A model generated the notes under the pieces. It saw only the letters and a program-made list of their open reading frames with translations, was not told the DNA's origin and did not search any database. This document shows, piece after piece, positions 10,030 through 62,619 of a stretch of DNA of 64,000 bases (positions are counted from its first letter, which is position 1; every line of letters starts with the position of its first letter). Origin of the DNA: an uncultured bacterium (GTDB taxonomy: Bacteria > Patescibacteriota > Minisyncoccia > Phycocordibacterales > GWA1-40-21); contig CAWDSG010000002.1 of NCBI GenBank assembly GCA_963804975.1, positions 405,015 through 469,014 of the forward strand, in the 5' to 3' direction. Position numbers and translations under genes: made by a program.

Positions 10030-11856
10030 ATGGAAATTCGCAATATAGCAATAATCGCACACGTTGACCACGGTAAAACCACCCTCACAGACGCAATTTT
10101 GAGGCAAACGGGCATGGTGGAAGAAGGCGTGAGTATGGACAGCAATAAACTCGAACAAGAGCGCGGTATTACCATTTATGCCAAGAACACCTCCATTTTT
10201 TACAAGGATACAAAAATAAACATCGTTGATACTCCCGGTCACGCGGATTTCGGCTCAGAAGTTGAACGTGTTCTCCGCTCTATTGATACGGTACTTCTTG
10301 TGGTGGATGCGCAAGAAGGCCCGATGCCGCAAACTAGATTTGTCTTGAAAAAATCTCTTGAGCTCGGACTTAAACCGATTGTCGTTATAAATAAAATTGA
10401 CAAATCTGCCGCAAGACCGGAAGAAGCTCACGAAGAAGTGCTTGAACTTTTTATGGAACTTGGCGCAAATGACGAGCAACTGAACTTCCCTACTATTTAC
10501 GCTATCGGCAAAAAAGGCGTTGCGTGGAAAAACCTGCCTACCGGCCAGGCAGGTCTGAAAGATGAACGAAAAGACCTGCCTACCGGCCAGGCAGGTCTAA
10601 CTCCTCTTTTGGATCTGATTCTTGAAAAAATTCCGTCAGCTTCAACGCAGGAAAATCTCGCCGCTCCTTTTACGGCGCAAATTTTTAATCTCGCTTACGA
10701 TAATTTTCTCGGCAGAATGGGAATCGCCAGAATCTATACCGGAAAAGTAAAAGACGGACAGACAGTTTTTGTCAAAGACACAGACGAAAAAAGCAGACAA
10801 GCAAAAATCACAAAACTTTTCACTTTCAAAGGAATTCAAAGAGATGCCGTGCCGGAAGCCGCTGCCGGAGACATTGTTATGATTGCCGGAATTCCCGACG
10901 CTTACATCGGAGAAACTCTTTGCGAAAACACAGACCAAAAAGCTCTGCCTTCCATAAATATAGATGAGCCGACAATTTCTTTGAGTTTTTTGGTCAATGA
11001 TTCCCCGTTTGCAGGAAGAGAAGGAAAATTTGTTACAGGACGACAGATAAGAGAACGACTTGAAAAAGAATTGGAAGTAAATGTCGGGCTCAAAATAGAT
11101 TTTAATACCGATCCGATCACAGTTTACGGCAGAGGCGAACTTCACATCGCAATCTTGATAGAAAATATGCGCCGAGAAGGTTTTGAGCTTCAGGTTTCCC
11201 AACCGCAAGCAATTATTAAAGAAATTGACGGCGTAAGATCCGAACCGTTTGAAGAAGTCATCGTGGACGTGCCATCGGAATTCCAAGGAACGATCATTGA
11301 AAAACTCGGCAAAAGAAAAGGGATTATGAAAGATATGAAAATCAAAGACAACCAGGTCCGCATGGTCTTTGAAATTCCAACAAGAGGACTTCTTGGATAC
11401 AGAGGGGCTTTTATTATGGATACAAAAGGCCTTGGAATCCTTTCATCGCGATTTATCGGCTTCAAGCCATACACCGGAGAAATTCAGAAGCAAGAATTCG
11501 GCTCAATGACCTCAATGATTTCCGGAAAAGCTATGGCTTACTCGCTTTGGAACTTGCAGGAGCGCGGCGTGCTTTATATTGATCCTGCCATAGATATTTA
11601 TGAAGGAATGGTCATCGGACATGTTTTGAACGGCGAAAATCTTGAGGTAAACCCGATAAAAAATAAAAATCTTACGAACGTCCGCGCCTCGGCAAGCGAT
11701 GAAGCGCTTTATCTTGTTCCGCCATTTCGCCTTGATATTGAAAAAGGTTTGGAGATTATGCAAGACGATGAATATCTGGAAATCACTCCGAAATCCGTTC
11801 GTCTCCGAAAAAAGTTTTTGACTAAAAATGATAGATCAAAAGCCGGAAGAAAATAG
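10030..11856 (+). CDS. typA: translational GTPase TypA/BipA
   Basis: [20 protein letters not shown]-domain and overall BipA architecture. Carries a tandem 42-bp GC-rich palindromic insertion encoding [23 protein letters not shown]. Confidence 0.9.
10532..10596 (+). repeat. tandem duplication of GC-rich palindromic element ACCTGCCTACCGGCCAGGCAGGT, in frame inside typA
   Basis: Two copies (10532..10554 and 10574..10596) of a 23-bp near-palindrome, GC-rich against an AT-rich background. Confidence 0.8.
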
Positions 11857-14084: not shown

Positions 14085-14690
14085 ATGCGCAAAATAGTTT
14101 TTGATATTGAAACAAGCAATGATTTCTTGTATGTCGGACTAGGCGATCTATCCAAGCTGGATTTGTCCGTTGTCTGCATTTACGATTACGAAACCGGCAA
14201 ATATTCCAGTTTCACGGAGGGTACACTGAAGGACCTCTGGCCGATTTTAGAAAAAGCGGAATTGCTTATCGGCTACAATAGCGATCATTTTGATATTCCA
14301 ATTTTAAATAAATATTATTCCGGAGACCTTTCAAAAATCAAAAGTTTGGATCTGATGAAAGAAATAAAGAAATCCCTGGGCAGAAGAATTAAGCTTGATA
14401 CTATCGCGGAAGCAACGCTTGGCAGGAATAAAACCGGAAGCGGAATAGATGCGATTAATTGGTGGAAGGCCGGAGAAAAGCAAAAAGTCATTGATTATTG
14501 CATTGAGGATGTGAAAATAACAAAAGAAGTTTACGAATACGCTCTGAAAAACGGCTTTCTCAAATACAAAGACGGACTTGGCCGCCTGCCCGGCCAAGGA
14601 TCAGGCAAAGAAATAAAAGAAATCCCGATTGATACTTCAAAATGGCAAGATATTGATAATTCAAAAATGACTTTCACCTTGCCGTTTTAA
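14085..14690 (+). CDS. DEDD-family 3'-5' exonuclease (DnaQ/RNase D-like)
   Basis: FDIETSN (Exo I), YNSDHFDIPIL (Exo II), YCIEDV (Exo III) motifs. Contains a GC-rich palindrome insertion near the C-terminus (LPGQGSG). Confidence 0.55.
   Translation: MRKIVFDIETSNDFLYVGLGDLSKLDLSVVCIYDYETGKYSSFTEGTLKDLWPILEKAELLIGYNSDHFDIPILNKYYSGDLSKIKSLDLMKEIKKSLGRRIKLDTIAEATLGRNKTGSGIDAINWWKAGEKQKVIDYCIEDVKITKEVYEYALKNGFLKYKDGLGRLPGQGSGKEIKEIPIDTSKWQDIDNSKMTFTLPF
14585..14599 (+). repeat. GC-rich palindromic element copy (CCTGCCCGGCCAAGG), in frame in the exonuclease gene
   Basis: Same motif family as in typA, leuS, rsmH, lysS, greA and priA. Confidence 0.6.
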
Positions 14691-18408: not shown

Positions 18409-21276
18409 TTATACAACAAAGTTGATTACTTTGTTTTTAACGAAGATTTTTTTAATAATTCTCTTGCCGGAGAGCCACTTGACAATATCTTGATTGTTTA
18501 AAGCTGATTTTTCCACTTTATCCTCCGAAGAATCTGCCGGTACGTCAAGAGTTGCCCGAACTTTGCCGTTTATCTGCACAACGATTTTCACATTTCCCGA
18601 TTTTAATTTGCTTTCATTATATTTCGGCCAGCTTTCCAAAGCAATCATTTTTTTACCACCAAAGTTTGCCCAAATCTCTTCACAGATATGCGGAGCAAAA
18701 GGAGAAAGAATTTTTATCAAGGATAAATATGATTCCTTGCTTATCTTGTCCTCTCCTTCAAAATTATTCGCCAAAATCATCATTGCAGAGACCGCAGTGT
18801 TTGCATTGAATGATGCGATATCGTCTCCGACTTTTTTTATCGTTTGATTCAATAATATTTTCGTTTCCTCGCTGTCGGTAAAATTTTCGGCAACTTTTTC
18901 CTGAAGCTTCCAGACCTTGTCCAAAAATCTTCTTGAGCCAACCATGCTATCGGTGCTCCAAGCAATCTCCTGTTCAAACGGTCCCATAAACGACTCATAA
19001 ACCCTGAGTGTGTCGGCGCCTACATTTTTTACCACCTCATCGGGATTGACCACATTTCCCCATCTTTTTGACATTTTCCTGTTATCCGAGCCGAGTATCA
19101 TTCCCTGATTTCTAAGCTGTTTAAAGGGCTCTTTTGTGCTTACTATGCCTATATCAAAGAGAAACTTGTGCCAAAAACGAACATAAATAAGATGTCTTGT
19201 GGCATGCTCCGTACCTCCGACATACATGTCCACCGGAGCCCAATATTTTTCTTTTTTCGGATCAACCAAGGCCTTATCGTTTTTTGGATCCATATAGCGT
19301 AAATAATACCAAGATGAGCCGGCCCATTGCGGCATCGTGTTTGTTTCTCTTTTACCGGCACCGCCGCATTTCGGACACTTCACGTTTACCCATTTTGTCA
19401 TGGCGGCAAGCGGCGACTCTCCGGTTCCTGTCGGTTCGTAAAATCTGACCTTTGGAAGCATAACAGGCAGATCTTTTTCCGGAACTGCAACTGTCCCGCA
19501 TTTTTCACAATGCACTATCGGGAATGGCTCGCCCCAATATCTCTGACGCGAAAAAACCCAATCCTGAAGTTTGTATGTGACTGTCATTTTTCCGCCGGCA
19601 AATTCTGTGATTTCTTTCATTATTTCCGTATTTTTCTTGCCGTCAAATTTTCCGGAATTGATCATTATTCCATTGCCGATAAATGCATGTGGTCCTTTTT
19701 CCAAATGAGCAATAATTTCAGGGAGTTCCGAAACAGGCCAAAAAATTTTATTTATTTCTGAAATCGGCACCCATACAACAGTGTGCTTCTCCGATTCTTC
19801 ATCTGAAAGTTCATTTTTTTCGAGATTCGCTAGTTCCACAACAAAAACTTGAGTAAATGCCTGGCGATTGACATTCTTATGTGCTGCATAAAAATGCGTT
19901 TCCATTTGCCAGCCAAGTTTCTCCACTTTTTTAAAATTTTTATAGCCGGTTTCTTCTTTCACTTCCCGTGCGATAGCATCTTCGCGCGATTCGTTTTCAT
20001 CAACGCCACCGATAACAAGTGTTTTCCATGGAACTTTTTTCCATTGGATTTGAATGATCTTATCTTCGGTAGGATGCTTCACAATTGCCTGCACATTGGC
20101 TCTCGGACTCCATTGTTTATCATTTTTGGGAAGATTATCTTTATCAATAAAAAACGGTGCAATAACCTGTTTTATCGGCAAATTATATTTCTTTGCAAAA
20201 GCAAAATCGCGGTCATCATGTGCCGGCACAGCCATTACTGCCCCCGTGCCATAATTCGCCAAAACATAATCCGCGATAAATACGGGAATTTCTTCCTTGT
20301 TTACTGGATTTACGGCTTTCACTCCGTCAAGTTTAACGCCGGTTTTTTCCTTGCCTTCCGCAGTCCTTTCTATTTCCGTCCTGTTTTTTATTTCCTTCCT
20401 GTATTTCTCAACTTCAGCCCAATTTTTTATCTGCGGCTTCAATTCATCAATCAAACTATTTTCCGGAGCAATAACGACATAAGAAAGGCCGAATAAAGTA
20501 TCAGGTCTTGTAGTGAATACTTTTATTTCTTTTCCTGCCTGCGCAGGCAGGTTTGAATCCTTAATTTTAAAAGTAATTTCCGCGCCTTCCGAACGGCCAA
20601 TCCAATTCCTCTGCAATTCCTTGATGTGTTCCGGCCAGGCAAGCTCATCCAAATCATTCAAAAGCCGATCGGCATAATCGCGGATTTTCAAAACCCATTG
20701 TTTCATCTGTTTTTTCTCTACCACAGTCCCGCACTGTTCGCATTTTCCGTTCTCTATATCTTCATTTGCCAATCCGGTCTTGCAGGAAGGGCACCAATTT
20801 ATCGGCGCAAATGACTCATAAGCCAGACCTTTTTTGAACATCTGCAAGAATATCCATTGCGTCCATTTGTAATATTTCGGATCTGTTGTGTTTATTTCCC
20901 TATCCCAATCATAATCCAGACCTATAATACTTAACTGTTCTTTGTATCTTTTGACATTTTTCTTTACTGCAATTTCAGGATTTATTTTATTTTTTAAGGC
21001 GTACTGTTCTGCCGGCAAGCCAAAAGCGTCCCAACCCATCGGATGAAGAACATTAAAACCATTCATTCTTTTGAATCTTGAATAAATATCAGTAGCGACA
21101 TAACCTCGCGGATGGCCGACATGAAGGCCTTCTCCCGACGGATACGGGAACATATCAAGCACGTAACATTTCGGCTTGTCGCTCTTCTCGGTGGTCTTGT
21201 AGATTTTTTCCGCAGCCCATTTCTTTTGCCATTTCTTCTCAATCTTTATGTGGTCGTATTTGCCGGTTTTATTCAT
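18409..21276 (-). CDS. leuS: leucyl-tRNA synthetase with inserted Nudix-like domain
   Basis: HVGH, editing domain, KMSKR, anticodon-binding domains. Likely start MNKTGKYDHIKIEKKWQKKW at 21276 (ORF track extends to 21342). About 160 extra residues between the AHDDRDF..IKQVI and GIMINSGKFDG blocks contain a perfect Nudix box. Confidence 0.93.
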   Translation of the reverse strand: MNKTGKYDHIKIEKKWQKKWAAEKIYKTTEKSDKPKCYVLDMFPYPSGEGLHVGHPRGYVATDIYSRFKRMNGFNVLHPMGWDAFGLPAEQYALKNKINPEIAVKKNVKRYKEQLSIIGLDYDWDREINTTDPKYYKWTQWIFLQMFKKGLAYESFAPINWCPSCKTGLANEDIENGKCEQCGTVVEKKQMKQWVLKIRDYADRLLNDLDELAWPEHIKELQRNWIGRSEGAEITFKIKDSNLPAQAGKEIKVFTTRPDTLFGLSYVVIAPENSLIDELKPQIKNWAEVEKYRKEIKNRTEIERTAEGKEKTGVKLDGVKAVNPVNKEEIPVFIADYVLANYGTGAVMAVPAHDDRDFAFAKKYNLPIKQVIAPFFIDKDNLPKNDKQWSPRANVQAIVKHPTEDKIIQIQWKKVPWKTLVIGGVDENESREDAIAREVKEETGYKNFKKVEKLGWQMETHFYAAHKNVNRQAFTQVFVVELANLEKNELSDEESEKHTVVWVPISEINKIFWPVSELPEIIAHLEKGPHAFIGNGIMINSGKFDGKKNTEIMKEITEFAGGKMTVTYKLQDWVFSRQRYWGEPFPIVHCEKCGTVAVPEKDLPVMLPKVRFYEPTGTGESPLAAMTKWVNVKCPKCGGAGKRETNTMPQWAGSSWYYLRYMDPKNDKALVDPKKEKYWAPVDMYVGGTEHATRHLIYVRFWHKFLFDIGIVSTKEPFKQLRNQGMILGSDNRKMSKRWGNVVNPDEVVKNVGADTLRVYESFMGPFEQEIAWSTDSMVGSRRFLDKVWKLQEKVAENFTDSEETKILLNQTIKKVGDDIASFNANTAVSAMMILANNFEGEDKISKESYLSLIKILSPFAPHICEEIWANFGGKKMIALESWPKYNESKLKSGNVKIVVQINGKVRATLDVPADSSEDKVEKSALNNQDIVKWLSGKRIIKKIFVKNKVINFVV
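19678..20160 (-). other. Nudix hydrolase-like domain inserted within LeuS (Nudix box GGVDENESREDAIAREVKEETGY at about 19942..20010)
   Basis: Matches Gx5Ex7REUxEExGU exactly. Flanking beta-strand-like segments ANVQAIVKHPTEDKIIQIQ and VVWVPISEINK. Confidence 0.65.
20534..20551 (-). repeat. GC-rich palindromic element copy (CCTGCCTGCGCAGGCAGG, perfect palindrome), in frame in leuS
   Basis: Encodes NLPAQAGKE in LeuS. Confidence 0.7.
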
Positions 21277-21408
21277 ATTAAAACATAATATAACAAAAAT
21301 AGTCGGAAATAAAGAGTTCTTTGGCTTGACATAATCCGTCATTTAATTAAGATAGGACCAGAACAGGCAAGTCCGTTCCTTTCCAAAAAAATCTGTCAGG
21401 AGAGAAAA

Positions 21409-21757: not shown

Positions 21758-21790
21758 AAGGCCCGAACACGGAAGTGTTCGGGCCTGATT
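21758..21790. terminator. bidirectional terminator hairpin GGCCCGAACAC-GGAA-GTGTTCGGGCC
   Basis: Perfect 11-bp GC-rich stem followed by a T-run, between convergent genes. Confidence 0.7.
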
Positions 21791-22987
21791 TTATTCTTCT
21801 GATTCCAGTCGTGTTATTTCCAAAATTTTTGATTTGGATTTTTTACCCACAATCTTTATTGTACGAGGTTCAATATCTATTTGGTTTGCTGAAGCATCTA
21901 TTTGTATTTTTCCGCCCAAATTATTAATATCTTTTATTTTTGGATAAACTCTTGAATCTAATGAAGCACACGCAGCATTAAATTTTTTTGTTGCTCCTTC
22001 AAGTGAGGCACCTATACCTGCAAAATGTCCAAAAAAAGTATTAATCCGATCTCCTAAATCAGTAATTTCTTCAGCAAGTTTAGAAGCATTTTCTATAGTT
22101 TTCTGTTGCCTCCACGCATGAGCAATTAAAGATAAGAGGGGCATTATTATTGCTGGACTTGCTAACATTACTTTTTTATCTTGAGCTTCTGTGTATAAAT
22201 TCATGTCTTCTTCAACGACTGCTCGTATAGCAGCTTCGCTCGGGATAAACATAACAACGTATGGTACTCTAGGATCTACATACTTCTGATATTCTTTGCT
22301 TGAAAGTTCTTTTATGCGTTCTTTTATATGTTGAGTAAATTTTACTATATGTTCTTTTCTTTTTTCAGCATTTTTTTCTACAACAGCTTTATCAAATTCT
22401 TCCAAACTAGCCTTGCTATCAATGGCAAGTTTTAATCCATCGGGAAGAGTAATAATCACGTCTGGACGTAGGTTAGCATTGTCCCCGGTAACAGTTTCTT
22501 GAGTTTGAAAAACAACACCTTCATTCAAGTCTGATTTTTCTAAAATTGTTTTCAAAAGCAATTCCCCCCATTTTCCTCTAACGGCACTGGCTGAGGATAA
22601 TAAGTTTTTAACGGTACCAACTTCCTCTTGCATTTTTGCTCCGGCGTTTAATACGGTTTCAATACTCTTTCCAAGAGATCCTGTTTGTTCTGCTCTCATT
22701 TTTTCAAAATCAGAAATTTTTTCATCAACGGCTTTCATTGACTTATTTATTTCTTGTGCAATTCTATCAAAATTTTTTTCTTTACTTTCAAGATTAATGG
22801 AAAAATCTTTTGATTGATTACGAAGAACATCACCAGCAACAGCTTTAAAACGTGATTCTAGTTGATCTATATCCTTGCCTCTTTCTTCAAGCTGGACCTT
22901 TTTAATATCTAATTCCTTATTTTTTATATAGGATGCAAGAAAAAAACCTATAATTCCTCCTAAAATTATTGTGATAATATAAATCAT
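21791..22987 (-). CDS. rmuC: DNA recombination protein RmuC
   Basis: N-terminal TM, coiled-coil, conserved RmuC C-terminal region (VMFIPSEAAIRAVVEED...ASPAIIMPLLSLIAHAWRQQ). Start set at MIYIITIILGG (22987). The longer ORF-track N-terminus overlaps yqeY and is unlikely. Confidence 0.8.
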   Translation of the reverse strand: MIYIITIILGGIIGFFLASYIKNKELDIKKVQLEERGKDIDQLESRFKAVAGDVLRNQSKDFSINLESKEKNFDRIAQEINKSMKAVDEKISDFEKMRAEQTGSLGKSIETVLNAGAKMQEEVGTVKNLLSSASAVRGKWGELLLKTILEKSDLNEGVVFQTQETVTGDNANLRPDVIITLPDGLKLAIDSKASLEEFDKAVVEKNAEKRKEHIVKFTQHIKERIKELSSKEYQKYVDPRVPYVVMFIPSEAAIRAVVEEDMNLYTEAQDKKVMLASPAIIMPLLSLIAHAWRQQKTIENASKLAEEITDLGDRINTFFGHFAGIGASLEGATKKFNAACASLDSRVYPKIKDINNLGGKIQIDASANQIDIEPRTIKIVGKKSKSKILEITRLESEE

Positions 22988-23035
22988 ATATCTATTGTAC
23001 CAAAAAAATTTGAAATATGCTAAAATAATTCCATT

Positions 23036-23488
23036 ATGACAATACAAAAACAAATCAATGACGGGATAAAAGATGCGATGATTAAAAAGGACACTGTCCG
23101 CCTCACGGCGCTTCGCGGGGTCCTCGCGACTTTTACAAATGAAATGCTTGCCAAAAAACCTGCCGTACAGGAACTTCCGGATGAAGATGCCATCGCAATA
23201 ATCAGAAGATTGGTAAAGCAAAGGAAGGACTCCATTGAACAATTCACGAAAGGCGGAAGGATGGATTTGGTGAAAAACGAAGAGGCCGAAATGAAAATTC
23301 TGGATGAATTCCTGCCCCAAATGATGAGCAAGGAAGAAATCGTGAAAGTTGTGAAAGCTAAAGTTGCCGCAGCAGGAGAAATAGACAAAACCAAACTTGG
23401 CCAATTTATGGGCGGAATTATGAAAGAATTGAAAGGAAAAGCCGATGGCGCCATTGTGAAAGAAGTGATTGAAGAGATTGTAAAATAG
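23036..23488 (+). CDS. yqeY: GatB/YqeY domain protein
   Basis: Typical YqeY sequence (IKDAMIKKDTVRLTALRGVLA...LDEFLPQMMSKEEI). Confidence 0.8.
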   Translation: MTIQKQINDGIKDAMIKKDTVRLTALRGVLATFTNEMLAKKPAVQELPDEDAIAIIRRLVKQRKDSIEQFTKGGRMDLVKNEEAEMKILDEFLPQMMSKEEIVKVVKAKVAAAGEIDKTKLGQFMGGIMKELKGKADGAIVKEVIEEIVK

Positions 23489-24139: not shown

Positions 24140-24215
24140 TGGCCTTATCGTCTAACGGTTAGGACATAGCCTTCTCAAGCGTTAGAATCGGGGTTCGATT
24201 CCCCGTAAGGTCACC
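24140..24215 (+). tRNA. tRNA-Glu(CUC)-like; all arms canonical except a poorly paired anticodon stem (possible pseudo-tRNA or unusual tRNA)
   Basis: Acceptor GGCCTTA/TAAGGTC, D-arm GTCT..GGAC, loop TTCTCAA with U33 and anticodon CTC, T-arm CGGGGTTCGATTCCCCG, encoded CCA. Anticodon stem TAGCC/GCGTT pairs at only 2 of 5 positions. Confidence 0.5.
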
Positions 24216-24239
24216 ATTTCGTGCTAGCACGAGATATAT

Positions 24240-28549: not shown

Positions 28550-29458
28550 TCAAATTTTTTCTATGATTCTTAATTTTGCGCTTCTTGACCGAGGATTCTC
28601 TTTTAATTCATATTCACTTGGCGTAATTGGTTTTTTATTTATAAGCTTTCCTTCTTTTGATTTTGACTTGTCCCTGAAAAAATTCTTGACTTCCCTGTCC
28701 TCAACGCTGTGAAATGAAATTATTGCCATTCGTCCTTCTTTATTCAGCAAATTCCATCCTTTCTCCATTCCTTCTTTGAGAGCGCTGATCTCGTCATTGA
28801 CCGCAATCCTCAAGGCCTGGAATGTTTTTGTGGCAAAATGAATCTTTCCTTTCCTGTAAGATGCCGGAACTGCGTTTCTGATTATTTCCACTAATTCGTC
28901 CGTGGTCTTGATTTCTTTTTTCAATCTTTCTTCCACAATCGCCTTTGCGATTCTTCTTGCATATCTTTCGTCTGAATATCCGTAAAGAATGTCGGCAATG
29001 GTTTCTTCTTTCCAATTATTCAGGATTATTTCGGCCGTCAATATATTTTTTGCCGGACTTTCAGAAAAAGTCATCTGGAGAGGTTCGTTGTTTTTGAAAG
29101 TAAATCCTCTGCCGGAATTTTCTAACTGATCGCTTGAAAGCCCAAGATCCAAAAGTATCGCGTCCACTTTTTGAATATTTAAATCTTTTAGAACCACATC
29201 GATATTTCTGTAATCTGAAAGTACAAGTTTGTAATCGCATCCGATTTTTGCCTGCCCGGCCAGGGAAAGAATTTTTTCGGCATTTTTTATGGCAGACAAA
29301 TCTTTATCTACTGCAATGACCTTCACTTTGCCGCCGAATTCGGAACAGACCTTTGCAGAATGCCCCGCGCGCCCCAAAGTCCCGTCAAAAAATATTGATC
29401 CGGACTTAAGATTTAAATTTTCTATTGCTTCATTTAAAAGAACTGTCTTATGTATCAT
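28550..29458 (-). CDS. rsmH: 16S rRNA m4C1402 methyltransferase RsmH (MraW)
   Basis: MIHKTVLLNEAIENL...DGTLGRAGHS N-terminal signature. Confidence 0.9.
   Translation of the reverse strand: MIHKTVLLNEAIENLNLKSGSIFFDGTLGRAGHSAKVCSEFGGKVKVIAVDKDLSAIKNAEKILSLAGQAKIGCDYKLVLSDYRNIDVVLKDLNIQKVDAILLDLGLSSDQLENSGRGFTFKNNEPLQMTFSESPAKNILTAEIILNNWKEETIADILYGYSDERYARRIAKAIVEERLKKEIKTTDELVEIIRNAVPASYRKGKIHFATKTFQALRIAVNDEISALKEGMEKGWNLLNKEGRMAIISFHSVEDREVKNFFRDKSKSKEGKLINKKPITPSEYELKENPRSRSAKLRIIEKI
29241..29255 (-). repeat. GC-rich palindromic element copy (CCTGCCCGGCCAGGG), in frame in rsmH
   Basis: Encodes LSLAGQAKI. Confidence 0.65.
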
Positions 29459-30559: not shown

Positions 30560-32032
30560 TTATCCCCTTGGTCGCATAAACGGAAAAATTTGGCATTCGC
30601 GGGCGGATTTGTCCATAAGAAAAATAAAGAGCAGTTCTGAAAAACCAAATCCGAATGTCGGCGGCATTCCATACTCAAGCGCTTCCACAAAATCGCTATC
30701 CATCATCTGCGCTTCCTCGTCCCCTTCTGCGCGAAGCTTTGCCTGCTCTTCAAACCTTTGCATCTGATCAATCGGGTCATTCAATTCGCTGAAACCCTTG
30801 CCCATTTCATTTCCGGCAAGTATCACTTGGAATCTTTCCACTAGATTTTTATTTTTCTCCATTCTCTTTGCAAGCGGTTCCATTATTACCGGGACATTCA
30901 CAAGAAATCCCGGGCCGGCAATCTGCTTTCTGCAATATTTCCAAAGTGCGTCAATGCCGCGATTCATATTGAATCCTTTCCTGTCATATTCCACTTTCAA
31001 ACTCTGCAATTTCTTTTCTATTTCTTTCATATCTGTTTTTAGCACATCAATATCGGTCGTTTTTTTGATCGTTTCAACATAATCATACTTTTCCCATTTC
31101 TTTCCTAAATCTATATCAAATCCTTTTATCTTGAATTTCAGCGTGCCGAATATTTCTTCCGCGATATATTTATACAAATCCTGTACAAATTTCATACCCT
31201 CGTTGTAATCGGAATATGCCTGATAAAATTCCACCTGCGTATAATCCTGCAAATGCTCGGCATCAACACCCTCATTTCTGAAAATTCTGCCGACTTCATA
31301 AACCTTCGGAAAACCGGCAACAATGAGACGCTTGAGCCAAAGCTCCAGAGAAATTCTTAAATAAACATCCGTGTCATACGCGTTATAATGCGTGATGAAC
31401 GGCTTGGCTTCCGCTCCGCCTGCGGTATTTTCAAGAACTGGTGTCTGTACTTCCATAAAACCTGATTTTTCAAGAAATTTTCGAATTGCGACGAAAAATT
31501 TTGCTTTTTTCTCAATCATATCTTTGACTTTCGGATTGAATATGATGTCCAGATATCTTTTTCTCAATCTTTCTTCTTCATCGGCAAGGCCATGCCATTT
31601 CTCCGGAAGCGGGCGCAAAGATTTGGCAAGCATTTTCCAATCCGCGACTTGCAAAGTTTTTTCTCCTCGCTTCGTCACAAAAAGTTTTCCGGAAATTTCC
31701 ACAAAATCCCCGATATCTGCCGTATCGGAAAATAAATCAAAAAGTTTGCCTGACCGGCCAGGTTCATCCATTTCGTCGCGTTTCAAAAGCCCCTGAAAAG
31801 TTCCTGTGCCGTCATTTATATTAAAAAATACAAGTCCGCCCTGCCCCCTGATGGACATTATTCTACCAACAAGATGAATATCTTTTTCTTTTTTGGATAT
31901 TTTTTCAAAATCAGAAACAACTTCAGCGAGCAAATAATCTTTTTTGGAAACTGCCGGGTAAGGATTTATACCGAGCTTCTCAAGCTTTTTCAGTTTTTCT
32001 ATTCTGGTATTTCTTAATTCTTCAAAAGCCAT
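30560..32032 (-). CDS. lysS: lysyl-tRNA synthetase (class II)
   Basis: N-terminal OB anticodon-binding domain plus class II catalytic core, 490 aa. Confidence 0.9.
   Translation of the reverse strand: MAFEELRNTRIEKLKKLEKLGINPYPAVSKKDYLLAEVVSDFEKISKKEKDIHLVGRIMSIRGQGGLVFFNINDGTGTFQGLLKRDEMDEPGRSGKLFDLFSDTADIGDFVEISGKLFVTKRGEKTLQVADWKMLAKSLRPLPEKWHGLADEEERLRKRYLDIIFNPKVKDMIEKKAKFFVAIRKFLEKSGFMEVQTPVLENTAGGAEAKPFITHYNAYDTDVYLRISLELWLKRLIVAGFPKVYEVGRIFRNEGVDAEHLQDYTQVEFYQAYSDYNEGMKFVQDLYKYIAEEIFGTLKFKIKGFDIDLGKKWEKYDYVETIKKTTDIDVLKTDMKEIEKKLQSLKVEYDRKGFNMNRGIDALWKYCRKQIAGPGFLVNVPVIMEPLAKRMEKNKNLVERFQVILAGNEMGKGFSELNDPIDQMQRFEEQAKLRAEGDEEAQMMDSDFVEALEYGMPPTFGFGFSELLFIFLMDKSARECQIFPFMRPRG
31748..31761 (-). 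repeat. GC-rich palindromic element copy (CCTGACCGGCCAGG), in frame in lysS
   Basis: Encodes EPGRSGK. Confidence 0.55.
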
Positions 32033-32043
32033 TATTTAATATT

Positions 32044-32526
32044 TTATTTTACATCAACAACTTTATATTCCATTTTCCCGCTTGGAGAATTAAAAGAAAA
32101 CGATTCGCCTTTCTTTTTGCCGAGCACCGCTGCGCCGATCGGAGATTTGTTTGATATCTTGCCGCCTGACATATTTGACTCGGCCGAACCAACAATCATA
32201 AAAGTTCTTTTTGTTCCCTGGCCGGGCAGGCCGTCATTTTTCTCCACAGTCACCGTGCTGCCTATCATCGCATGGTCGCCGTGCCTGTCTTCCACCACAA
32301 TGGAATTCTTCAATATTGATTCAAGTTTGGAAATCCTCTCTTCTATATCCGCTTGCTGGGCCCGCGCTTCATGATATTCGGCATTTTCCGAAAGATCACC
32401 GAGCCCGCGCGCATAATCAAGCGCTTCGGCAACTTCTTTTCTTTTTACATTCTTAAGTTCTTTGAGCTCGGCTGCCAATTCATCATACTTCTGTTTCGTA
32501 AGATACTCTCTTTGTACATCGGCCAT
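32044..32526 (-). CDS. greA: transcription elongation factor GreA
   Basis: LTKQKYDELAAELKELKNVKRKEVAEALDYARGLGDLSENAEYHEARAQQADIEERISKLE signature. Confidence 0.9.
   Translation of the reverse strand: MADVQREYLTKQKYDELAAELKELKNVKRKEVAEALDYARGLGDLSENAEYHEARAQQADIEERISKLESILKNSIVVEDRHGDHAMIGSTVTVEKNDGLPGQGTKRTFMIVGSAESNMSGGKISNKSPIGAAVLGKKKGESFSFNSPSGKMEYKVVDVK
32217..32230 (-). repeat. GC-rich palindromic element copy (CCTGGCCGGGCAGG), in frame in greA
   Basis: Encodes the extra loop residues GLPGQG, which are absent from E. coli GreA at this position. Confidence 0.65.
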
Positions 32527-45405: not shown

Positions 45406-45468
45406 AAATTCATTATATCAGATTTTGAAAAGTTGAAAAACCGCCTATTTTCTGTCATTATACAGCTA

Positions 45469-47400
45469 ATGAAAATTCTGGAAGTTATTCCAATTTCAAA
45501 AGGAATCACAATGGAAACGCTTACGTATTTTACCGGAAGCGATGTTCCCGCTGGTTCCGTGGTAAAAGTTCCGCTCAGGAAAAAAGCGATTTCGGCAATC
45601 GTCCTGTCCGTCAGAGAGGCGGAAATCATGAAGTCGGAAATAAAAAAATCAGCATTTTCGCTGAAAAAAATCGAAAAGATAAAACATTCAAATTTGCTTA
45701 GAAAAGAATTTGTGGAAGCATCGGTGGATACGGCCGAATATTATGCCGGCTTTACCGGAGCTGTACTTGGTTCAATGATTCCTAAGGTTTTTTTCGAAAA
45801 TCTGGACAAGCTTAAAATCCCAAAAAGTGAAGTTTTAGCCGAAACGCCAAAAGCTGCGGAAAAATTCGCCATCCAATCAAATGACGAAGACAGATACGCC
45901 CATTATAAAAGCATTATTCGGGAAGAATTCGCAAAAAACTATTCCGTGTTTTTCTGTCTGCCGACAATTCAGGATATTAAAAAAGCAACTGAGACCTTGA
46001 AAAAAGGAATTGAACATTACACCTTTACGCTTCATGGACTGATGAAAAAGAAAGAAATCATAGAAATTACAAATAAAATCCTCAAAGAAAAACATCCTAT
46101 TTTGATAATCGCCACAGGCGCATTTTTGAGCATTCCAAAAGAAAAAATCGGCACGATAATAATAGACAAGGAAAATTCGCGGGCTTACAAGCAGCAGACA
46201 AGACCATACATTGACATCAGAAATTTCGCTGAAGCATTCGCAAATAAAATAAAAGCAAAAATAATTTTCGGCGACCTGCTTCTGCGCGCAGAAACGATAT
46301 ACCGATACAAAAAAGGAGAGCTGATAGAAATCGCTCCGCTCAAATTCCGTTCGCTCACTACTTCAAATGAAGTGCTTATAGATATGAAGCAAAAAAAGAC
46401 GGGCAAAAATGATGAGAAAGAAACAAAAAAAGACGAATTCAGGATATTCAGTCCGGAGCTTGAGAAAAAAATAAAGGAAAATATCGAGAATAACGAGCAT
46501 ATGTTCATTTTCACCGCAAGGCGAGGCCTTTCCCCTTCCACACTCTGCTCCGATTGCGGAAATATAGTCAAATGCAATTCTTGCGGAGCTCATGTAGTTT
46601 TGCACCTACCTAGCCGGCAGGCAGGTAAAGCGACGGAGAATTTCTTTTTGTGCCACAGATGCGGAGAAAGAAGAAGTGCAAATGAAAAATGCGTAAACTG
46701 CGGAGGATGGAAGCTTGCAACGCTTGGAATCGGCGCAGAACTGATTGAAGAAAAATTGAAGGAAATGTGCCCAAAATGCAAAATCTGGAGATTGGATGCC
46801 GATGTTGCCAAAACCCACAAAAAAGCCGGAGAGATTGCGGAAAAATTTTACAATTCTCCGGAAAGCATTCTGATCGGAACGGAAATGGCGCTTCTTTATC
46901 TTTCAAAAAAAGTTGAAAATTCCGCCGTGGTTTCCATGGATACTTTTTTCTCAATCCCCGATTTCAGGGTAAACGAAAAGGTTCTGAATATTCTGCTGAA
47001 AATACGCGCTATTACGGACAGAAGTCTGATAATACAGACCCGCGACAGCTCGCAGAAAGTTTTCAACTACGCTTTGACCGGGAATTTGATTGACTTCTTC
47101 AAAGATGAAATTGACGATAGGAAAGCTCTCGGCTATCCGCCATTTTCAACTCTCATAAAAATATCCGTTTCAGGTTCCAAAGAAGACGTTTTGAAATCCG
47201 CGGAAGATTTGCAAAAAACTATAGAACCGTACGAAATGGATGTATTCCCCGCGTTTATTCCGCAGAAAAAAGGAAAATGCGGCATAAATGGAATAATAAA
47301 AATCCCAGGAGGAAAATGGCCCGACAAAAATATTTCCGAAAAACTGAAATATCTTCCGATGAATTTCTCCGTGAATGTGGATCCGGATAGTTTATTGTAA
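45469..47400 (+). CDS. priA: primosomal protein N' (PriA) with degenerate helicase motifs
   Basis: N-terminal 3'-binding domain, Cys-rich zinc-binding region (CSDCGN..CNSCGAH..CHRCGE..CVNCGG), RRG and GTEM motifs. Walker A is absent and the DEEH box reads IIIDKENSRAYKQ. ORF track start at 45433; the Met at 45469 is more likely. Confidence 0.8.
   Translation: MKILEVIPISKGITMETLTYFTGSDVPAGSVVKVPLRKKAISAIVLSVREAEIMKSEIKKSAFSLKKIEKIKHSNLLRKEFVEASVDTAEYYAGFTGAVLGSMIPKVFFENLDKLKIPKSEVLAETPKAAEKFAIQSNDEDRYAHYKSIIREEFAKNYSVFFCLPTIQDIKKATETLKKGIEHYTFTLHGLMKKKEIIEITNKILKEKHPILIIATGAFLSIPKEKIGTIIIDKENSRAYKQQTRPYIDIRNFAEAFANKIKAKIIFGDLLLRAETIYRYKKGELIEIAPLKFRSLTTSNEVLIDMKQKKTGKNDEKETKKDEFRIFSPELEKKIKENIENNEHMFIFTARRGLSPSTLCSDCGNIVKCNSCGAHVVLHLPSRQAGKATENFFLCHRCGERRSANEKCVNCGGWKLATLGIGAELIEEKLKEMCPKCKIWRLDADVAKTHKKAGEIAEKFYNSPESILIGTEMALLYLSKKVENSAVVSMDTFFSIPDFRVNEKVLNILLKIRAITDRSLIIQTRDSSQKVFNYALTGNLIDFFKDEIDDRKALGYPPFSTLIKISVSGSKEDVLKSAEDLQKTIEPYEMDVFPAFIPQKKGKCGINGIIKIPGGKWPDKNISEKLKYLPMNFSVNVDPDSLL
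46605..46626 (+). repeat. GC-rich palindromic element copy (CCTACCTAGCCGGCAGGCAGGT), in frame in priA between zinc-finger cysteines
   Basis: Encodes HLPSRQAGKA. Confidence 0.6.
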
Positions 47401-59984: not shown

Positions 59985-60011
59985 AAAGGGCCCGCTTTTC
60001 GCGGGCCCTTC
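59985..60011 (-). terminator. terminator hairpin for rnpB (AGGGCCCGC-GAAAA-GCGGGCCCT + T-run on minus strand)
   Basis: Seen directly. Confidence 0.7.
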
Positions 60012-60507: not shown

Positions 60508-60810
60508 TTAAATGGTGGCAAGAATGATATTGATGATTCCAATTGCCGAAACCATAATGAATATGCCGATTACTCCCCATATCATATGCTGATAACCCTC
60601 TTTTCTTTTGTCGGGAACATCGGCATTCTGAATGAAAACCATCACGCCCCAGACAAAATAAACAACTGCAAGAGCAAATAAAAGATAAATAACCGGCTTG
60701 ACGATCTGATCCAACACATTCTGATATAACTTACTGAAGGTAATATTGGTATTAGTGCCGCTCGGAACAATAATGGCGGCATATGTTTTTTGGATTATAA
60801 AATCCAGCAT
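60508..60810 (-). CDS. TrbC/VirB2-like small 2-TM protein (paralog 5 of 5)
   Basis: C-terminal MIWGVIGIFIMVSAIGIINIILATI shared with the paralogs. Confidence 0.45.
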   Translation of the reverse strand: MLDFIIQKTYAAIIVPSGTNTNITFSKLYQNVLDQIVKPVIYLLFALAVVYFVWGVMVFIQNADVPDKRKEGYQHMIWGVIGIFIMVSAIGIINIILATI

Positions 60811-60816
60811 ATTGTT

Positions 60817-61173
60817 TTATATGGTTGGAATCTGGCTGCCGATATTTTCCTGTACGCCCGATGTGCCGAATGTCGCCTGAAGTATCGCCACAAGTCCCCA
60901 AACTGACACCATTATGAATATGCCGATAATTCCCCAGAGCATGCCTGATTTTGCCGCTTTTTTCTTTTCTTCATTTCCGGACATAACGTAAAGAATAACG
61001 TTCCAAATAAACCAGACTACCGCCAAACCTATAAGCAAAGGCACCAATCTGTTCAGTATCACACCGGCAAAACTAAACAATCCCATAATACCCTGATTTG
61101 GAGCATATCCTTGAGCGAGTGCCACAAGAGGAGAAACTCCAACCGAAGCGCTTGCTAATATTCTTTTCATCAT
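60817..61173 (-). CDS. TrbC/VirB2-like pilin paralog (4 of 5)
   Basis: Signal peptide plus two hydrophobic helices; LWGIIGIFIMVSVWGLVAILQATFG. Confidence 0.5.
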   Translation of the reverse strand: MMKRILASASVGVSPLVALAQGYAPNQGIMGLFSFAGVILNRLVPLLIGLAVVWFIWNVILYVMSGNEEKKKAAKSGMLWGIIGIFIMVSVWGLVAILQATFGTSGVQENIGSQIPTI

Positions 61174-61283
61174 AAATAAATTACTTTTAATGAATAAACT
61201 TCGCGACCTTAATTATAATATAAACATTATAAATCTTACAAAAGCAACAATCAAGTGGATAATTACGCCTAAAGATCCGTCAT

Positions 61284-61838
61284 TTATCTTGGCATATTGA
61301 TGCTGCTGGTATTCAATCTAAACGTAGATTGAAGAATATTTACGATTCCCATAACCGAAAAAATGACAAATAGGCCTATAATCCCCCATAAAATAAACTG
61401 TTTTCCCGTATCTTTGTCTTCTTTGCCGCTTGCGCGTATGATTTTGAATATTCCCCAAAGGAAAAAAACAAGAGCAAGGCCGATAATAATGCGAACCACC
61501 AGATAATAGAAGCATCCTACCACAAGGTTCATGATTAAGCTCTTAAAATCCGTTACCGCTCCGGGGTTGCAGCTGAAAGAATTTGTTGTTGCGGAGCCGT
61601 TTACAGCTGAACTAGCTCCGCCGCAAAAAGCCGGGTCGTTTCCGACATAAACATGATTGACGCAGCTTGGATCGTGGCCGTTCGGAAAAACCGCCAGATT
61701 CGGCTCGCAATAACAGCCGGTAGCCGCATAAGAAATACGAGCTCCGGCAAAAAAAGAAACGGAAACACTAAAAGCAACGAGTAGAGATAAAATAAAAACT
61801 GAAATTATTTTTTTATTTTCGATATTTGATCTTTGCAT
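61284..61838 (-). CDS. TrbC/VirB2-like pilin paralog with Cys-rich N-terminal extension (3 of 5)
   Basis: ILWGIIGLFVIFSVMGIVNILQSTF, compared with the NVMSTFFG C-terminus of TrbC as recalled. Eight Cys in the extracellular part. Confidence 0.5.
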   Translation of the reverse strand: MQRSNIENKKIISVFILSLLVAFSVSVSFFAGARISYAATGCYCEPNLAVFPNGHDPSCVNHVYVGNDPAFCGGASSAVNGSATTNSFSCNPGAVTDFKSLIMNLVVGCFYYLVVRIIIGLALVFFLWGIFKIIRASGKEDKDTGKQFILWGIIGLFVIFSVMGIVNILQSTFRLNTSSINMPR

Positions 61839-61846
61839 TTTGATTT

Positions 61847-62215
61847 TTACGATTGCAGATTCTTTATCGTGCTGATAATGATCGTTGCGATTATTTTTGC
61901 GCCAAGCAGGATGGCAACGCCAATGCAGGTATTGAAAAAAATATCTTTCGCTTTTTTAAGCCCTTCAGGATTTCCCCGCGCCGCCACAAACTTATATCCG
62001 GAATAAATAAAAGCAACAATCGCGACGACACTTCCCACTTCCAAAACATAACCCAGAATTGTATTCACGAGAGTCGGAACATCGGTAATGTTTTTTAAAG
62101 GATTCTGTATTACTCCGGCCTGCGCAGCGTAAGAAACCGAGGGAATAAAAATTGCCGAAGCGGAAACCAAAAACATAAAAATTGTTATTCTTATTTTTTT
62201 ACAATATTTTTTCAT
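61847..62215 (-). CDS. TrbC/VirB2-like pilin paralog (2 of 5)
   Basis: PTLVNTILGYVLEVGSVVAIVAFIYSGYKFVAARGNPEG resembles the TrbC core. Confidence 0.5.
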   Translation of the reverse strand: MKKYCKKIRITIFMFLVSASAIFIPSVSYAAQAGVIQNPLKNITDVPTLVNTILGYVLEVGSVVAIVAFIYSGYKFVAARGNPEGLKKAKDIFFNTCIGVAILLGAKIIATIIISTIKNLQS

Positions 62216-62235
62216 TTTTTTAATTTAATTGATAA

Positions 62236-62619
62236 TTAACTTCCTAAAAATCTCAATGCTCCCGTGCTTGAATTTACAAGCGCCGCGATAACCGTATGGA
62301 TAATAAGCCAAGCGCATAGCACGATAAGTATGCCGATAATGGTTTTCTTGAACATCCCGAGAGCTTCTTCTATTTTGACTGTATTGCCGGGATTGAAAAG
62401 CATTTCTCCGCCTGCAATCGCAAAAGTAATGGCTGCCACTGAAACAGATATTCCTAAAAACCAATTGATGATGTTATTTACAAGAGTCGCCAGAGAACTG
62501 AAATCGCAATCGGGACCGTTGCACGGAACAAGCCCGGCTGCAAGAGCGGCCATCGGAACACCAATGAATGCAAAAAATAAAAACGGAAGGATTTTATAAT
62601 AAAGATTGTTATTCTTCAT
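62236..62619 (-). CDS. TrbC/VirB2-like pilin paralog (1 of 5)
   Basis: Long signal peptide, then ATLVNNIINWFLGISVSVAAITFAIAGGEMLFNPGN, compared with VirB2 ATMVNNICTFILGPFGQSLAVLGIVAIG as recalled. Confidence 0.55.
   Translation of the reverse strand: MKNNNLYYKILPFLFFAFIGVPMAALAAGLVPCNGPDCDFSSLATLVNNIINWFLGISVSVAAITFAIAGGEMLFNPGNTVKIEEALGMFKKTIIGILIVLCAWLIIHTVIAALVNSSTGALRFLGS

Follow-up and report, generated by a model that had tools for sequence, protein, structure and literature searches.

Short GC-rich palindromic repeats inserted in frame into genes of a Paceibacterota genome

The stretch of DNA analysed here, called the window throughout, is 64 kb long and lies on a 606-kb contig (CAWDSG010000002.1). 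It has a GC content of 39% and is about 91% coding. Its housekeeping genes have their closest relatives in metagenome-assembled Paceibacterota and other Patescibacteria, and the genome to which it belongs is one of Paceibacterota (Patescibacteria). Among the genomes in the collections, OY970290.1 (L070, L081; L-numbers are labels of the compared loci and contigs), a 682-kb chromosome with 82-88% protein identity to the window, was the closest. Our subject is a family of short palindromes of the form CCTGCC...GGCAGG that lie within genes of the window. Searches allowing up to three mismatches revealed exactly eight copies, which fall into three subfamilies (A, B and C):

10533..10553, + strand: subfamily C 21-mer CCTGCCTACCGGCCAGGCAGG, exact match, first copy in typA (10030-11856, +); adds LPTGQAG
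10575..10595, + strand: subfamily C 21-mer, second copy in typA, the same as the first at 21/21 bases and 21 bp downstream of it
14574..14603, + strand: 30-bp insertion with a subfamily A core GCCTGCCCGGCCAAG (14584-14598, one mismatch to the 15-mer), in an exonuclease-fold gene (14085-14690, +); adds GLGRLPGQGS
20534..20551, - strand: subfamily B 18-bp perfect palindrome CCTGCCTGCGCAGGCAGG, in leuS (18409-21342, -); adds LPAQAG
29250..29264, + strand: subfamily A 15-mer GCCTGCCCGGCCAGG, exact, antisense to rsmH (28550-29458, -); adds LAGQA
31748..31762, + strand: subfamily A 15-mer variant GCCTGACCGGCCAGG with one mismatch, antisense to lysS (30560-32032, -), in another codon phase; adds PGRSG
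32217..32231, - strand: subfamily A 15-mer GCCTGCCCGGCCAGG, exact, on the sense strand of greA (32044-32526, -); adds (G)LPGQ
46605..46625, - strand: subfamily C variant CCTGCCTGCCGGCTAGGTAGG with three mismatches to the typA 21-mer, in priA (45433-47400, +); adds LPSRQAG, a net gain of 6 amino acids (aa)

Subfamily A is thus represented by rsmH, greA, lysS and the exonuclease gene, subfamily B by leuS alone, and subfamily C by typA twice and priA. The inserts measured 15, 15, 15, 18, 21, 21, 21 and 30 bp. The elements start with (G)CCTG, end with CAGG(C), and are about 67-87% GC by base count, against 39% for the window. Unrelated sites may share one sequence, as the rsmH copy is the same as the greA copy. 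In the window, the pattern CCTGSC-N0-6-GSCAGG had five matches against 0.01 expected. The 15-mer with up to three mismatches gave nine strand-hits at five sites against 0.39 expected, one of the sites being only the leuS 18-mer at three mismatches. For the 18-mer and the 21-mer, the chance expectation was 0.00 each. No further degenerate copies were found in the window at up to three mismatches, and the density of the family there is about 1 per 8 kb. Rfam gave zero matches at any copy.

An earlier note, made from the sequence alone, had listed eight copies. We found all of them at or within a few bases of the positions it gave, except for the rsmH copy, which it had placed at 29241..29255, about 10 bases off. 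Its identification of typA, leuS, rsmH, lysS, greA and priA was confirmed, and the peptides it quoted were correct. According to Pfam, the product of the gene it called an exonuclease is an RNase_H_2/3'-5' exonuclease-fold protein. The copy it reported there is present, but as part of the 30-bp insertion, which has its own stem: 8 perfectly paired bp (CTTGGCCG/CGGCCAAG) enclose the loop CCTGCC, with a folding energy of -8.2 kcal/mol.

All eight copies are lineage-specific insertions. The number of orthologs compared per gene ranged from one (the exonuclease gene and leuS) to about 120, with 16 to 119 for the other genes. In typA, 119 orthologs read KN|LKDEQKD|LTPLL without either 7-aa block, and the window has two separate 21-bp insertions. 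The codon alignment with the closest genome gave a clean 21-bp gap at copy 1 (AA^T -> AAC...GGT), and the flanks A...TCT are common to both copies. The ancestral segment LKDE(Q/R)KD was present once in 119/119 TypA orthologs; in the window it reads LKDERKD and lies between the two copies. The earlier note had described the pair as tandem. A tandem duplication is ruled out, because the orthologs hold the intervening LKDEQKD once and lack both flanking 7-aa blocks. The pair represents two identical but separate insertions on either side of an ancestral segment.

The 15-bp blocks of subfamily A were missing, at the DNA level too, from 16/16 orthologs of rsmH, from all orthologs of lysS that were compared (30 shown in the alignment, from a cluster of 77) and from 29/29 orthologs of greA shown. 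In leuS, an exact 18-bp gap was found in the ortholog of the closest genome, the sole one spanning the site. In the exonuclease-fold gene, the ortholog of the closest genome, again the sole one to compare, had a 10-aa gap. The priA insert lies in the zinc-ribbon loop and was absent from 118 of 119 PriA orthologs, the remaining one, P0204, having LPTQTS at the same column. Lineage specificity had been named beforehand as the refutation test of the insertion idea, and the orthologs of related genomes indeed lacked the peptide segments at the eight sites, with the LPTQTS of P0204 as the exception.

Wherever the sites were aligned at the DNA level, the inserted block was the palindrome itself, usually following the first two bases of a codon (GA^T -> GAC CTG ... 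GGT), and no target duplication was seen at these window copies. The target sites were A/T-rich with weak A^T or ^GAA patterns, the sites being too few to call a consensus. The rsmH and greA copies had G...GAA in common beyond the core. A motif-blind alignment of 17 window genes with at least four orthologs each gave four window-specific internal insertions of at least 2 aa; three of them were the motif and the fourth was an unrelated KSDY.

As the earlier note had stated, the insertions keep the reading frame: the lengths were multiples of three in 8/8 cases, for which the probability is about 1.5e-4 without translation, and the host open reading frames (ORFs) were intact at 8/8 copies. It had also named a motif random with respect to frame as a refutation, and the codon phase proved not to be random. 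Seven of the eight copies were in one phase, reading Leu-Pro/Ala-x-Gly-Gln-Ala-Gly, and the lysS copy was in another (PGRSG). We also counted the phases of the 18-mer in a metagenome set, which was built by an exact search for the 18-mer (at least 120 contigs) and counted in ORFs of at least 450 nt. Among the matches listed, the three phases occurred 56 (LPAQAG), 14 (PACAGR) and 15 (CLRRQ) times (chi-square about 41). Lengths in multiples of three and a shared phase are what purifying selection on translated insertions would produce, and the inserts are presumably translated.

The absence of the motif from intergenic DNA, which the earlier note had also pointed out, proved uninformative. With 91% of the window coding, chance alone would place 8/8 copies in genes in about one case out of two, and the absence has no weight. 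As a property of the family it fails, since 37/122 copies of the 18-mer, among the matches listed, lay outside any ORF of at least 450 nt. Copies are thus common in intergenic DNA.

The repeated unit is DNA, not peptide, because rsmH and greA hold one and the same 15-mer, on opposite strands, because the lysS copy has the same DNA in another phase, and because the two typA copies are identical at 21/21 bases in a genome otherwise preferring AT-rich codons. In an AlphaFold2 (AF2) model of TypA, the G domain was confident, and residues 165-188, which span both inserts, formed a coil with pLDDT below 50 between the strand 163-165 and the helix 191-200. The greA, lysS and priA copies were at alignment positions of variable length among relatives. 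LeuS differs from its counterpart in the closest genome in another respect. It has 977 aa rather than 801, and the extra ~176 residues lie inside the editing (CP1) domain (residues ~400-575), with a NUDIX hydrolase domain among them (PF00293, E = 8e-13, aa 437-532).

The distribution of the family is patchy. No copies were found in 43 kb of syntenic DNA of the closest genome, and almost none in the 16 next-closest loci. At other sites, more distant Patescibacteria had exact copies of the 18-mer (L019, twice; L025; L067 in lysS; L205 at a different typA site), and L049, L054 and L109 carried the 20-mer CCTGCCTGCCGGTAGGCAGG, which is one insertion and one substitution apart from the priA variant of the window. 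The typA site of L205 was shared by its relative L206 with three substitutions (LPAQGG); therefore, copies are inherited and then decay. Degenerate LPAQ-type inserts were present in Patescibacteria ortholog groups, with decayed peptides including LPAQGG and LPAQTG.

The exact 18-mer occurred in at least 120 metagenome contigs with GC contents from 0.30 to 0.67. In the viral set, which consisted of stretches of IMG/VR contigs, it was found in 25 stretches. The 21-mer family CCTGCCTRCCGGNNAGGCAGG had 72 copies in 55 viral stretches with a median GC of 0.59, and the phage variant CCTGCCTACCGGACAGGCAGG had 18 copies. Subfamilies B and C were found together on the same contigs. The phage contig IMGVR_UViG_3300038551_000082 (L240, L245, L255, L277; 28.8 kb, GC 0.58), which encodes a terminase, a portal protein, a primase, an endolysin and a P22-type coat protein, carried at least ten copies of the 21-mer family. 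Several of them were nested in other copies, and a 99-bp composite was found in the linker of the primase gene. At about residue 390 of lysS, L067 had the palindrome CCTGCCCGC|GCAGGCGGG, and in L025 and L051 its dyad centre was the exact site of a further GC-rich block of 18 bp.

A separate observation concerns L105, where two 18-mers (11371-11388 and 11755-11772) with common flanks (gaaactgNtagaC...cgcgcacgc) lie beside a tRNA gene and a duplicated 3' tRNA fragment. Such an arrangement is typical of integration sites.

With its A/T flanks, the typA 21-mer could form a DNA hairpin with an 8-bp stem (-7.5 kcal/mol). The predicted hairpins of the 18-mer, the 21-mer with flanks and the exonuclease-gene element ranged from -6.5 to -8.2 kcal/mol (z from -2.3 to -3.2). 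Apart from the family, the window had just two GC-rich perfect hairpins with stems of at least 7 bp, at 21759-21786 (12 bp) and 59986-60010 (10 bp). They are intergenic, unrelated to the family and probably terminators. At 21791-23404 (-) lies the gene of an RmuC-family protein of 537 aa, which has a ~210-aa N-terminal extension; its counterpart in the closest genome has 349 aa. RmuC is reported to have a part in limiting rearrangements at short inverted repeats.

We give a probability of roughly 0.6 to the reading that the copies belong to a self-spreading family of ultra-short (15-21 bp) GC-rich palindromic repeats, in which the arms CCTGCC(T)/(A)GGCAGG are conserved and the centre between them varies. 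Such a family would multiply by new insertions at unrelated sites and would behave as non-autonomous or selfish DNA. Its recent activity would include this Paceibacterota lineage as well as other Patescibacteria and some phages. Insertion would be largely indifferent to coding status, and at 91% coding, genes would be hit most. The survivors would be those with lengths in multiples of three, in tolerant loops or linkers, mostly in the phase reading Leu-Pro-(x)-Gly/Ala-Gln-Ala-Gly. They would be translated as small loop extensions and would then decay by point mutation. We infer a copy-and-paste origin of the copies. As for the machinery, one may speculate about a trans-acting enzyme or a replication template switch acting on the hairpin in single-stranded DNA, because the gene copies have no target duplication, both orientations occur and insertions hit the centres of other copies.

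Several results weigh against a self-spreading family. No transposase or integrase was found by Pfam among the ~50 genes of the window, and no mobilising gene on the phage contig, where the genes found served structure, replication or lysis, besides one for a PD-(D/E)XK nuclease. All-vs-all clustering of the 120 metagenome loci gave housekeeping families only and no candidate mobiliser. RAYT-like Y1 transposases were considered as a mobiliser and rejected. Their genes were present in five loci (L040, L090, L120, L129, L186), and where flanking repeats were visible (L090), the palindrome differed from the CCTGCC family. In L090, the perfect palindrome TGTCAAGGAC-N-GTCCTTGACA stands on both sides of the RAYT-like gene (2228-2248 and 2863-2883), and it also occurs in L129 (4875-4897). 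REP-RAYT pairs are classically laid out in this way; the contig here is Patescibacteria-like, and the arrangement has no relation to the CCTGCC family. The 15-mer folds poorly (-1.7 kcal/mol, no better than shuffles), which weakens a strictly hairpin-dependent mechanism. Direct repeats of 8-12 bp flanked about 9 of 119 metagenome copies of the 18-mer, among the matches listed, against 0.05 expected (L086, L090, L103, L110, L123, L150, L157, L200), often within short tandem-repeat tracts. They vary in length and may be target duplications or slippage products; none flanked gene copies. One high-GC host was identified as Terriglobia; in its protein, the 18-mer was in a hypervariable loop where its status as an insertion is ambiguous, and in high-GC genomes some occurrences of the 18-mer may not be insertions. 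It is therefore mainly the phage contigs that speak for a range across phyla. Lastly, ongoing mobility would be deduced from comparative data only, and no polymorphism of filled and empty sites within a population was observed.

Two other explanations would make the copies products of DNA repair or replication, and both draw on the finding of no transposase in the window, on the colonised phage or shared among the 120 loci. The copies might be repair scars, formed when both 3' ends of a double-strand break receive one short sequence (CCTGCCTGC...), in a templated or sequence-specific way, and are then joined, so that the junction becomes the palindrome centre. The dyad symmetry of the inserts, their conserved outer arms and variable centres, and the lack of target duplication at the gene copies fit this idea, as do the second 18-bp GC-rich block exactly at the dyad centre in L025 and L051 relative to L067, and the hybrid half-sites of the 15-mer, in which CCTGCCC is joined to GGCCAGG. 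However, no enzyme or template adding such a sequence was found, and none is known. In addition, some asymmetric variants stand unchanged at several sites, for instance the typA 21-mer and the phage variant with its 18 copies, which looks like whole-unit copying rather than independent end-joining. We consider repair scars unlikely.

Template switching without a dedicated enzyme is also unlikely in our judgement. Here a stalled nascent strand would pair by 1-3 nt of microhomology beside an existing copy, copy the hairpin and switch back. The common flanks of the typA pair (A...TCT) and of the rsmH and greA copies (G...GAA) would be explained, and so would copies in tandem-repeat, slippage-prone contexts and the distance of 21 bp between the typA copies. 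But these flanks amount to merely 1-3 nt in a very small sample, and long-range jumps between unlinked loci, genomes or phages with the same 18-mer are hard to explain in this way. Hairpin-directed single-strand transposition by a trans-acting enzyme, microhomology-guided template switching and symmetric break healing are candidate mechanisms among which the data do not firmly discriminate.

A DNA motif maintained by the host, such as the site of a chromosome-organising protein, an uptake signal or a regulatory hairpin, seems very improbable. The motifs parS, NBS, matS, DUS and HIP1 are palindromic and over-represented, as are our copies, and ParB and DprA are encoded in the window. However, every copy is an insertion and none was built by substitution; both length (15, 18, 20, 21 and 30 bp) and sequence vary, and copies decay. 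Moreover, the closest relative has no copies, the same sequences occur in unrelated high-GC phages, and the density is only 1 per 8 kb. There is even less reason to believe that the peptide LPxGQAG was selected as a short linear motif added to many proteins. LP(x)(G/A)QAG is indeed encoded by seven of the eight window copies and by 66% of the 18-mer copies in ORFs. But the lysS copy encodes PGRSG, 29 of the 85 ORF copies are in other phases, and 37 of the 122 copies lie outside ORFs (all among the matches listed); the codons are the same between copies despite the AT-rich genome, the peptides decay, and the proteins that carry them are cytoplasmic enzymes without relation to one another. An assembly or sequencing artefact can practically be dismissed: the source is a metagenome-assembled genome, with nothing specific pointing to an error, whereas all copies keep the frame, the same elements occur in assemblies of many projects, and the TypA and PriA proteins, inserts included, were identical in a short-read (Logan) assembly made independently, a point against an error of assembly.

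Other mini-palindromes seem to have been inserted in a similar way. In 30 ortholog groups from 81 Patescibacteria loci and the window, lineage-specific insertions of 4-20 aa numbered 71. Of these, 21% had a perfect stem of 6 bp or more, against 6.8% in the control (p = 7.5e-5), and 45% were richer in GC than their own gene by more than 0.2. One mini-family, GACCCAAAGGGT(A/G)CC, recurred in five genes (L024, L027, L030, L050) with the peptides RDPK, DPKG, PKGA and PEGA. A GC-rich block encoding ...SAKASARQG was found in three genes (L025, L038, L042), and TCCGC..GCGGA (GFSAQGGP) in LysS of L018 and L038. At about residue 76 of lysS, L032 had 81 bp inserted in frame, including a perfect inverted repeat of 19 bp (TCCATCACTAACTTTGGGC ... 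GCCCAAAGTTAGTGATGGA). This position of LysS is an insertion hot spot, since at least eight lineages carry different insertions there.

In the literature library searched, no paper had the 18-mer or either of its 12-mer halves, and none dealt with in-frame insertion of palindromes in Patescibacteria; the family has apparently not been described before. We would tentatively go further, at somewhat less than even odds: the family could be the smallest self-propagating DNA element yet recognised (15-21 bp), crossing Patescibacteria, other bacteria and phages, possibly without a dedicated enzyme and acting on hairpins. It could supply many of the new loop residues that essential proteins gain in reduced genomes, and together with its sister mini-palindrome families it could explain a large share of recent in-frame insertions. 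If the self-spreading family is confirmed, the known size limit of DNA that multiplies by insertion would drop to about 15-21 bp, and one would have to ask how so little sequence can be copied to new sites across very different base compositions. The family also offers a testable source for many small lineage-specific insertions in Patescibacteria proteins, three of the four recent ones here coming from this one family. The insertion sites map spots in TypA, LeuRS, LysRS, GreA, PriA and RsmH that tolerate 5-7 extra residues, and the copies are clean presence/absence markers for tracing strains and lineages.

Two further features of the window may be recorded. At 24141-24216 (+), ARAGORN predicted a tRNA whose anticodon loop has 8 nt and whose four-base 'anticodon', ctca, it left undetermined (Rfam tRNA, 45 bits). 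At 60508-62619 (-), four to five small genes resembling type IV secretion system (T4SS) pilins (PF18895) adjoin the gene of a solute-binding protein.

We compared the family with known systems of short repeats. Miniature inverted-repeat transposable elements (MITEs) are about 50-500 bp long, make target duplications of fixed length and have an autonomous insertion sequence (IS) with the same terminal repeats. Our elements are 15-21 bp, have no target duplication at the gene copies, and no IS or transposase was shared among the 120 loci or present on the phage. HIP1, DNA uptake sequences (DUS) and Neisseria dRS3 are, like the present family, short, often palindromic, frequent in genes and biased in frame. 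Words of the HIP1/DUS type are built by substitution and occur about once per kb, whereas the copies here are discrete insertions at about 1 per 8 kb.

REP/REPIN sequences are short GC-rich imperfect palindromes of 20-40 bp that form DNA hairpins; they are non-autonomous and extragenic, are mobilised by RAYT (Y1/HUH) transposases and flank the cognate RAYT gene (PMC3116915, PMC3733652). REPs usually carry a GTAG or CGTC tag (PMC3733652). In contrast, the window copies are intragenic in 8/8 cases, start with CCTG without such a tag, and show no tie to the RAYT-like genes found. The GC clusters of yeast and other fungal mitochondria are GC-rich palindromes in an AT-rich genome; they are sporadic, diversify fast, merge or nest, are exchanged between genomes and have no known transposase (PMC4478555). 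They measure about 30-60 bp (GC42 has 42 nt), and are organellar and mostly non-coding (PMC4478555). The present family resembles them in being GC-rich palindromes in AT-rich DNA, in its sporadic presence among relatives and in its nesting. It differs in being half the size and bacterial or viral, and in lying wholly in coding DNA in this window.

The earlier note had likened the elements to Rickettsia palindromic elements (RPEs). These are reportedly palindromic repeats that occur in frame in coding genes, including essential ones, and are translated as extra surface segments; they are about 100-150 bp long and confined to Rickettsia. The comparison stands for the way of working, namely palindromic in-frame insertion into ORFs that stay intact. 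It breaks down for size (15-21 bp) and for the supposed restriction to this kind of genome, as our elements also occur in high-GC phage contigs. The present elements, set apart from RPEs here by description, are GC-rich in an AT-rich genome and common to distant bacteria and phages. The closest system in size and nesting, again compared by description, is the small dispersed repeats (SDRs) of cyanobacteria, which are said to be 21-27 nt long, dispersed, sometimes hairpin-forming, mainly intergenic and recognisable as insertions relative to orthologs, including nested ones. Our family shares the dispersed and nested insertions, and differs in phylum, in its length of 15-21 bp and in its occurrence across very different genomes. 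It fits fully into none of the systems compared and is best placed within a kind already known, the miniature palindromic repeats invading ORFs, among which it is unusually small and unusually widespread.

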